Shown piece after piece: positions 44,001 to 44,255 of a stretch of DNA of 64,000 nt. The stretch is from Eledone cirrhosa (lineage: Eukaryota): NCBI GenBank assembly GCA_964016885.1, contig OZ024762.1, positions 2,790,001-2,854,000 on the forward strand, written 5' to 3'. Within the stretch, counting starts at the first letter, position 1. Each line of letters opens with the position of its first letter. Both the position numbers and the translations under genes were made by a program. A model generated the notes under the pieces. The model was not told the DNA's origin, ran no database searches, and was given only the letters and a program-made list of their open reading frames with translations.

Positions 44001-44255
44001 GAGGTTATATTTAATTTGTTGGGATTCAACAAGCTTAAACATTTTTATAACTGATATAAAGCACTCAACAGTATATCCAGGAAGCTCCAACCGTTAAGGT
44101 TGTCTTTTTTCCGGGTATGTCAATATTTATTTATAAAACAAATCTGTATTTTATCTGATGAAAGTGCACCATAATTTGCCTTGGTGGCCCTTGAAATATG
44201 TATAATAAAATAAATATGGTTTTATAAATATAGTTTCCATTTATTAATACATTGT
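43997..44255 (+). mobile_element. Second locus of the same hammerhead element with its 3' segment inverted at the 5' end
   Basis: ATTTTTATAACTGATATAAAGCACTC (44041-44066) is the exact reverse complement of GAGTGCTTTATATCAGTTATAAAAAT (18595-18620). Flanked by (TA)n. Confidence 0.7.
44147..44212 (+). ncRNA. Minimal type I hammerhead ribozyme motif (copy 3)
   Basis: Stem I TATTTTAT/ATAAAATA; CTGATGA 44155-44161; stem II AAG..CACCA/TGGTG...CTT; GAAA 44193-44196; TATGTA; predicted cleavage after ATA at 44204. Confidence 0.8.

Follow-up and report, generated by a model that had tools for sequence, protein, structure and literature searches.

Hammerhead motifs in a region of the Eledone cirrhosa genome and their probable origin in Penelope-like retroelements with Hydra-clade motifs

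Introduction

The closest described counterparts of the motifs analysed here are the hammerheads of Penelope-like elements (PLEs), the function of which was called unclear by Craig et al. (2021; PMC8557442). Section 11 of that paper is our source for the diagnostic features of the Hydra clade of PLEs, which include RWK-type and DKT motifs, a CxCX5C linker, a C-terminal endonuclease with CxxC and CxH, (TA)n targets, an inverted 5'-truncated copy, a one-sided tail and a type I hammerhead near the 3' end. The available part of its supplement describes a member from Octopus bimaculoides, Hydra-1_Obim, whose target is (TA)n and which carries its own hammerhead. For the minimal hammerheads of metazoan PLEs, the accessible portion of Cervera and de la Pena (2014; PMC4209133) reports that they lie in pseudo-LTRs, that most copies are truncated and solitary, and that there are inverted pairs at distances of 100-700 nt, covarying families and a palindromic stem III; a dimer model is proposed there, single minimal hammerheads having shown no cleavage and dimers low cleavage. 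Type I hammerheads are also abundant in non-LTR retrozymes, with up to 120,000 in axolotl in the available text of Cervera and de la Pena (2020; PMC7229834). A preprint (bioRxiv 10.64898/2026.07.22.740005), in the part that is accessible, derives retrozymes from PLE pseudo-LTRs and finds their copies under-represented in Xenopus introns. We found no publication on the families described below or on hammerhead counts in cephalopods, though such motifs may already be covered by Repbase or by data of Lunse et al. For O. vulgaris, an annotation of repeats from 2026 (PMC13282606) counts Penelope-like families, and the words hammerhead and Hydra have 0 occurrences in the available part of its text.

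Here we analyse a stretch of 64,000 nucleotides of Eledone cirrhosa (contig OZ024762.1, positions 2,790,001 to 2,854,000), called the window, whose numbering is used throughout. It contains three hammerhead motifs, copies 1 to 3, each of which represents a separate repeat family (families 1, 2 and 3). The Hydra-clade features listed above recur among these families, as do those reported for metazoan PLE hammerheads in PMC4209133. What sets the families apart from the Hydra clade is a 3' UTR of 1.3-1.8 kb (in a unit of ~4 kb), a tail length of ~100 nt, pairing by A-U or G-U at 10.1-11.1, a stem II mismatch that is fixed and a copy number in the tens of thousands; from Hydra-1_Obim, as given in that supplement, they differ by the sequence of the hammerhead. 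Compared with the hammerheads in the consulted part of PMC4209133, they have a longer stem I (8 bp), a palindrome of 8 nt and G10.1-C11.1 only as a minority pair, and they are about 10 times as numerous as the 9,000 reported there for Xenopus tropicalis. The findings thus fit published PLE hammerheads, including those of a Hydra element from Octopus, and represent ordinary biology at unusual abundance; what is new is a set of families within a described retroelement clade, which changes little.

Results and discussion

Three type I hammerhead motifs in the window

A scan of both strands for CTGANGA gave three motifs with the form of a type I hammerhead, all on the plus strand, with cores at 18255, 18475 and 44155.

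18247..18312, plus strand: copy 1, hammerhead of family 1; a short inverted duplicate of its 5' part precedes it (~18198-18256)
18467..18531, plus strand: copy 2, hammerhead inside a family-2 pseudo-LTR and tail (~18385-18662), inserted in (TA)n adjoining copy 1
44147..44212, plus strand: copy 3, type I hammerhead (motif scan, RNAfold)
44147-44154 with 44205-44212, plus strand: stem I of copy 3
44155-44161, plus strand: core CTGATGA of copy 3
44162-44192, plus strand: stem II of copy 3
44193-44196, plus strand: GAAA of copy 3
44196-44203, plus strand: palindromic stem III octamer of copy 3

The CUGANGA core, GAAA and the UH cleavage site that define type I hammerheads are all present, and in copy 3 the cut is predicted between 44204 and 44205, after A44204. 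The preliminary description had reported that the three copies differ in stem II and retain its pairing, and this was confirmed as written, the strands being GGA/TCC and GTACTG/CAGTAC in copy 1, AGG/CCT and ATACCA/TGGTAT in copy 2, and AAG/CTT and CACCA/TGGTG in copy 3. The internal mismatch that it placed at a shared position was also found and could be refined to C.C in copies 1 and 2 and T.C in copy 3, the latter having in addition one more G-C pair and one more bulged base on the 3' strand. Its statement that CTGATGA is invariant holds for the three copies in the window, but not for the wider family, in which position 7 varies (T 132, C 10, G 4 and A 4 in the 150 distinct rows of the alignment described below).

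RNAfold recovered this stem II in each of the three copies. Relative to shuffled sequences, the stability of the fold had a z of -2.5 for copy 1, -0.9 for copy 2 and -0.11 for copy 3, so that copy 1 is the sole one of the three that is more stable than shuffles and copy 3 alone is no better than them. The number of CTGATGA strings as such in the window (13 observed, 8.8 expected) does not exceed chance, and a search with Rfam, at the gathering cut-off and at E<=10, gave no match to a hammerhead model in it.

Copies 1 and 2 (18247-18531) share the plus strand at a distance of 220 nt from each other, and their stem III octamers are compatible in spite of their different families. They could possibly form a heterodimer in cis if the plus strand is transcribed; the energy of pairing between their octamers is -1.5 kcal/mol.

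Copy 3 is part of a truncated and partly inverted insertion

The anatomy of the insertion that carries copy 3 could be read directly from comparison with longer copies of family 3.

43963..43997, strand-less: (TA)n microsatellite, insertion junction
43998..44071, minus strand: inverted tail of the same family-3 element, corresponding to what longer copies have after the pseudo-LTR; 97% identical to a copy elsewhere
44074..44262, plus strand: 3' end (pseudo-LTR) of a family-3 Penelope-like element, 5'-truncated; 96% identical to a longer copy with the coding end of the endonuclease upstream

The remnant thus consists of a 190-nt 5'-truncated end and an inverted tail beside (TA)n. First-look candidate counts were 348 for family 1, 2,348 for family 2 and 1,145 for the 141-nt stretch of copy 3 that stands for family 3. 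Among the 40 family-3 candidates that were scored, nearly all were 97-99% identical and many occurred in inverted pairs, and an exact 31-letter pattern of this family had 2,487 matches in the genome. By its 96-99% similarity to its family, copy 3 is a young insertion.

The neighbourhood holds other repeats. A piece at 44400-44700 (minus strand), which we take to be the C-terminal part of a LINE, adjoins copy 3, and Pfam matches revealed a LINE AP endonuclease piece at 52703-53376 (plus strand) and a LINE RT piece at 57333-57749 (minus strand). An open LINE frame of 1040 aa, which carries AP endonuclease and RT together with a match to a PHD finger, lies on the plus strand ~35 kb to the left of the window. 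A minisatellite with a 20-nt unit (177 copies, 94% identity) occupies 12589-16131.

Families 2 and 3 are linked to coding elements with Hydra-clade motifs

In full elements of family 2, an open frame of 742 aa begins ~230 nt downstream of one hammerhead and a second hammerhead is found at the 3' end; the distance from one hammerhead to the other was 3951-4263 nt in 4 of the 10 loci examined, beyond the <3 kb that is 'generally' given for the Hydra clade. The frame contains RWR, DKT, YRDD, a CxCX5C linker, CxxC and CxH, its RT and endonuclease labels being motifs read by eye against the alignment of PMC8557442. Pfam gave no RT or GIY-YIG match above the cut-off in this frame. It had 323 database proteins at E<=1e-20, one of which, at 39%, is named, a hypothetical protein of Argonauta hians. 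Family 3 has its own RT and endonuclease pieces upstream of the hammerhead, 60-84% identical to those of family 2 and with the same linker; the part recovered leaves out the N-terminus (the RWK/DKT region), and for family 1 its own loci gave no link to an open frame.

The RWK and DKT motifs of the Hydra clade thus appear in family 2 as RWR and DKT, and the CxCX5C linker, CxxC and CxH around E and N, and the C-terminal position of the endonuclease are found in families 2 and 3. The structure is that of PLEs, with partly tandem pseudo-LTRs, an inverted 5'-truncated copy and a one-sided tail. As to the (TA)n target, 76 of 145 scored 3' ends enter TA within 8 nt and 47 go on into the tail. From these features we regard copies 2 and 3 as the pseudo-LTR ends of Penelope-like retroelements that bear Hydra-clade motifs, the clade being read from these motifs. 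The Naiad clade was also considered and was rejected, its N-terminal endonuclease, DKA motif and absence of a canonical hammerhead being at odds with these elements.

A search with the family-2 endonuclease returned 65,396 first-look candidates. The 150 that were scored were all 94-100% identical, and several matches lay in open frames of >700 aa. Judged from these sequences, the genome is host to a very large and young Hydra-like expansion.

Hammerhead abundance and the palindromic stem III

Patterns for the 5' and 3' halves of the motif had 72,465 and 88,078 matches, respectively, in the 3.0-Gb assembly, and a reversed control had 0, which places the full motif, unlike CTGATGA alone, above chance. 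The resulting density is about one hammerhead per 35-40 kb, so that three in 64 kb is near expectation. More type I hammerhead families, one with a GC-rich stem I and the same AT palindrome and one with a 12-bp stem II, were encountered in the flanks of other loci; since they fall outside the search patterns, the genome total must be above the pattern counts.

The stem III octamer (A15.1 to U16.1) was self-complementary in 292 of 303 copies, a proportion inflated by search patterns that required an RYRY stem III. The commonest octamers were ATATGTAT (156), ATATATAT (99) and ATGCGCAT (26). By hand count of the first 100 rows of 3' pattern matches, the central two bases were TA in 36, TG in 25 and CG in 39. 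The non-pairing CA was present in 715 of 88,078 matches, mostly in the CpG-bearing family; these copies are not independent, and the deficit of CA amounts to few lineage events. About 12 shared changes were reconstructed at the central pair of stem III, all of which preserve pairing. The central bases of the octamer are unable to pair within a single hairpin, yet they covary, which points to cleavage in the dimer only. The pattern of stem III fits the double-hammerhead model.

We propose, with a probability of roughly 0.88, that copy 3 is the 5'-truncated, partly inverted end of a Penelope-like element inserted in (TA)n, that the hammerhead of this family likely acts only as a dimer in full elements, and that the lone copy is probably an inert passenger. 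Full elements would be transcribed through two same-strand pseudo-LTRs ~4 kb apart, and their two stem III palindromes would pair with one another, completing two active cores. The paired cores would then cut after AUA and free an element RNA of unit length. Selection for this dimer cleavage in the source lineages would lead to compensatory differences between families, and copies would decay unconstrained once inserted.

No same-strand partner hammerhead is present within 25 kb of copy 3, and its helices are weak (-2.2 kcal/mol for the self-duplex of the octamer and -2.4 kcal/mol for stem I). The 10.1-11.1 pair is A-U in 100, G-U in 26 and G-C in 17 of 150 rows, and stem I is all A-U. An A-U pair at 10.1-11.1 slows hammerhead cleavage. 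In view of this departure from efficient hammerheads at the 10.1-11.1 pair and in stem I, a role other than cleavage is possible.

We considered the possibility that the ~70,000-90,000 cross-compatible palindromic hammerheads form a genome-wide layer of RNA cleavage, in which sense intronic copies, with copy 3 as an example, would cut host pre-mRNAs by pairing in trans or with neighbours and the invariant pyrimidine mismatch of stem II would be where a protein or a tertiary contact docks. We hold this to be highly improbable. It would matter for cephalopod gene regulation if true, and nothing here shows cutting of host transcripts. Holding copies in the tens of thousands, which fall into about ten young families and in some of these include open frames, the genome is a test bed: the abundance permits a well-powered covariation test of the dimer model, through the central pair of stem III, and a direct test of the purging of sense intronic copies.

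Shared changes mostly preserve the ribozyme fold and private changes mostly break it

The alignment was built from 303 copies, 4 of which were dropped (stem II <24 or >37 nt), and the 299 others, from about ten families, gave 150 distinct rows. Each of the nine pairs of stem II was paired in 135-148 of the 150 rows, with several pair types apiece. Covariation was assessed with our own implementation of an R-scape-like test (a G statistic with APC correction, compared with nulls from simulation on the tree). The best four of 1,540 column pairs were all in stem II, with E values of 0.059-0.24 and none <0.05, at an effective sequence number of ~8. The true pairing of stem II ranked 7th among 362,880 permutations of the partners, and 3rd with lighter weighting. 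In 31 hand-picked representatives, with four distal pairs misaligned for one family, 94.9% of the cells were paired and double changes were seen in 10 of 21 pairs, compared with <=55% of cells paired in slid controls. Variation in stems I, II and III therefore supports the whole structure of a type I hammerhead, with individual pairs at E 0.06-0.24. The covariation invoked in the preliminary description is thus apparent in stem II pairing taken as a whole, and not in any single pair at E<0.05.

Changes were further divided between branches shared by several copies and branches private to one. On shared branches, 58 of 77 stem changes kept pairing and 19 broke it, and position 7 changed 12 times while the core had 0 changes. 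Of the 108 stem changes on private branches, 36 kept pairing and 72 broke it; here the core changed 24 times and position 7 changed 3 times. A near-intact core was a requirement of the search patterns, so that conservation is inflated and broken cores are under-counted. The contrast was significant for both comparisons (Fisher p 2e-8 and 1e-7) and stable over 30 reconstructions. Since pairs are mostly kept and the core is unchanged on shared branches, with the reverse on private ones, the ribozyme fold was likely under selection in the source lineages, and free decay followed after insertion. The earlier proposal of such selection in source elements, made from three copies, is supported by 299 copies of about ten families.

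A compensatory pattern could also arise without selection on an RNA fold, through template-switching repair of hairpins at the DNA level combined with common ancestry. Inverted junctions are indeed frequent in these elements, the families share ancestry and no single pair reaches significance. Yet 53 of the 58 shared changes that keep pairing are one-sided and pass through G-U, which DNA repair would not favour. Against this origin also stand the fourth position of stem II, unpaired in 150 of 150 rows, and the absence of shared core changes next to 12 at position 7. We regard this origin as very unlikely and retain selection on the fold.

The mismatch at position 4 of stem II (44165 with 44189 in copy 3) is a 1x1 mismatch, nearly always pyrimidine-pyrimidine, in all families. 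It may perhaps correspond to a tertiary or protein contact.

The putative exon at 41387 and the host gene

The preliminary description had suggested that copy 3 lies in sense orientation in the first intron of a gene starting with an exon at 41387 and could cut its pre-mRNA. The features relevant to this question are the following.

41387..41481, plus strand: putative first exon with ATG, 31 codons, a hydrophobic run and an AG/GTAAAA donor at 41481/41482, in single-copy DNA
312..4350, minus strand: host gene, orthologue of Octopus vulgaris CAI9740313 / O. sinensis XP_029650492, with two TSP1 domains and LDL-A
4350-4292 (ATG 4337), ~3735-3550 and 488-312, minus strand: coding exons of this gene, which has more exons to the left of the window
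7590..7721, minus strand: probable 5' UTR exon of this gene, suggested by weak similarity (E 0.3-0.4) with an acceptor and a donor

The ATG at 41387 and the donor do exist, and the stretch resembles a signal-peptide exon, although the hydrophobic run consists of a TTA/TCT repeat. The rule of an ATG, a hydrophobic run and a donor selects about nine sites in 184 kb, one of which is real; in the window there are only two, 41387 and the real exon at 4337. The 41387 peptide had no homologue at E<=10 (5 candidates) and no Pfam match. A search of RNA runs with 41330-45300 found no run with >0.07 of the words and none from this species. In 4 RNA runs compared with the putative exon, only low-complexity bits of contig were matched, in 2 of the 4, which is no proof of absence. 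Of 534 unmasked frames in 184 kb, Pfam searches covered the longest 143 together with 7 shorter ones, and recovered only LINE domains and the minus-strand gene. Among 145 of 245 short plus-strand frames downstream of the putative exon, no host domain was found and the one hit was a LINE zinc finger, this weak C2H2 hit sitting in a LINE-like fragment between TA runs. No plus-strand host exon that could be its partner was detected downstream of 41387 by an exon scan that is itself weak, since among the minus-strand exons known from the window it recovered just 1. We consider it unlikely that 41387-41481 is a genuine exon.

The suggestion that copy 3 cuts a pre-mRNA from this first intron, alone or with a partner in trans, has in its favour the ATG, hydrophobic run and good donor in a single-copy stretch, the small number of such sites in the window, the retention of CpG at 40001-40500 (o/e 1.42) and the intact core of copy 3. 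Against it stand the lack of a homologue, of a Pfam match, of RNA cover beyond low-complexity bits and of a downstream host domain, all of them weak negatives, and the frequency of similar sites. Moreover, copy 3 is a solitary motif with weak helices, it is young and one of thousands alike, its type of palindromic stem III is reported to be inactive as a monomer in the available part of PMC4209133, and the sole proven host gene is on the minus strand. Such cutting is therefore very improbable, and the suggestion is unsupported. The role envisaged was that of the conserved intronic hammerheads of amniotes (PMC6765202, available in part); these are few and highly conserved according to the accessible text of PMC7229834, whereas copy 3 is part of a young fragment of a transposon. 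An inert passenger derived from a Penelope-like element is our preferred reading of copy 3.

The exons of the minus-strand gene are 67-84% identical to the Octopus vulgaris protein. Its ATG exon and the probable UTR exon both have acceptors, so its first exon must lie further right; a search with the N-terminally extended isoforms of Octopus located none beyond 7721. Copies 1 and 2 would be antisense-intronic if the first exon is to the right of 18.5 kb. The region 39130-41480 contains unique CpG-retaining patches and donor-like sites on both strands (for instance near 39140 on the minus strand, 39157 and 39196 on the plus strand) and is a candidate promoter region for the minus-strand gene, for a plus-strand gene or for both.

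Short tandem units and other hammerhead-like motifs

The least probable reading, that the copies in the window are monomers of a non-autonomous family of non-LTR retrozymes, agrees with their type I hammerheads, low GC and very high copy number, as in the available text of PMC7229834, but is largely refuted for families 2 and 3 by the absence of head-to-tail repeats of 170-400 nt, by the continuation of the sequence upstream into a 3' UTR and open frame, which ties them to coding elements, and by the lack of a same-strand partner within 2.4 kb for 46 of 56 copies sampled blind to family.

Another, unrelated hammerhead-like family was also noticed in the window, at 32668 (minus strand), 36222 (minus strand), 36230 (plus strand) and 59933 (minus strand), with a remnant near 52200 (minus strand). 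Its core is followed by a stem II of 3 bp, stem III is ACAG/CTGT and the site is GUA. An exact 26-letter pattern of this family has 261 matches genome-wide, and most copies seem to be 5'-truncated or inverted directly upstream of the core.
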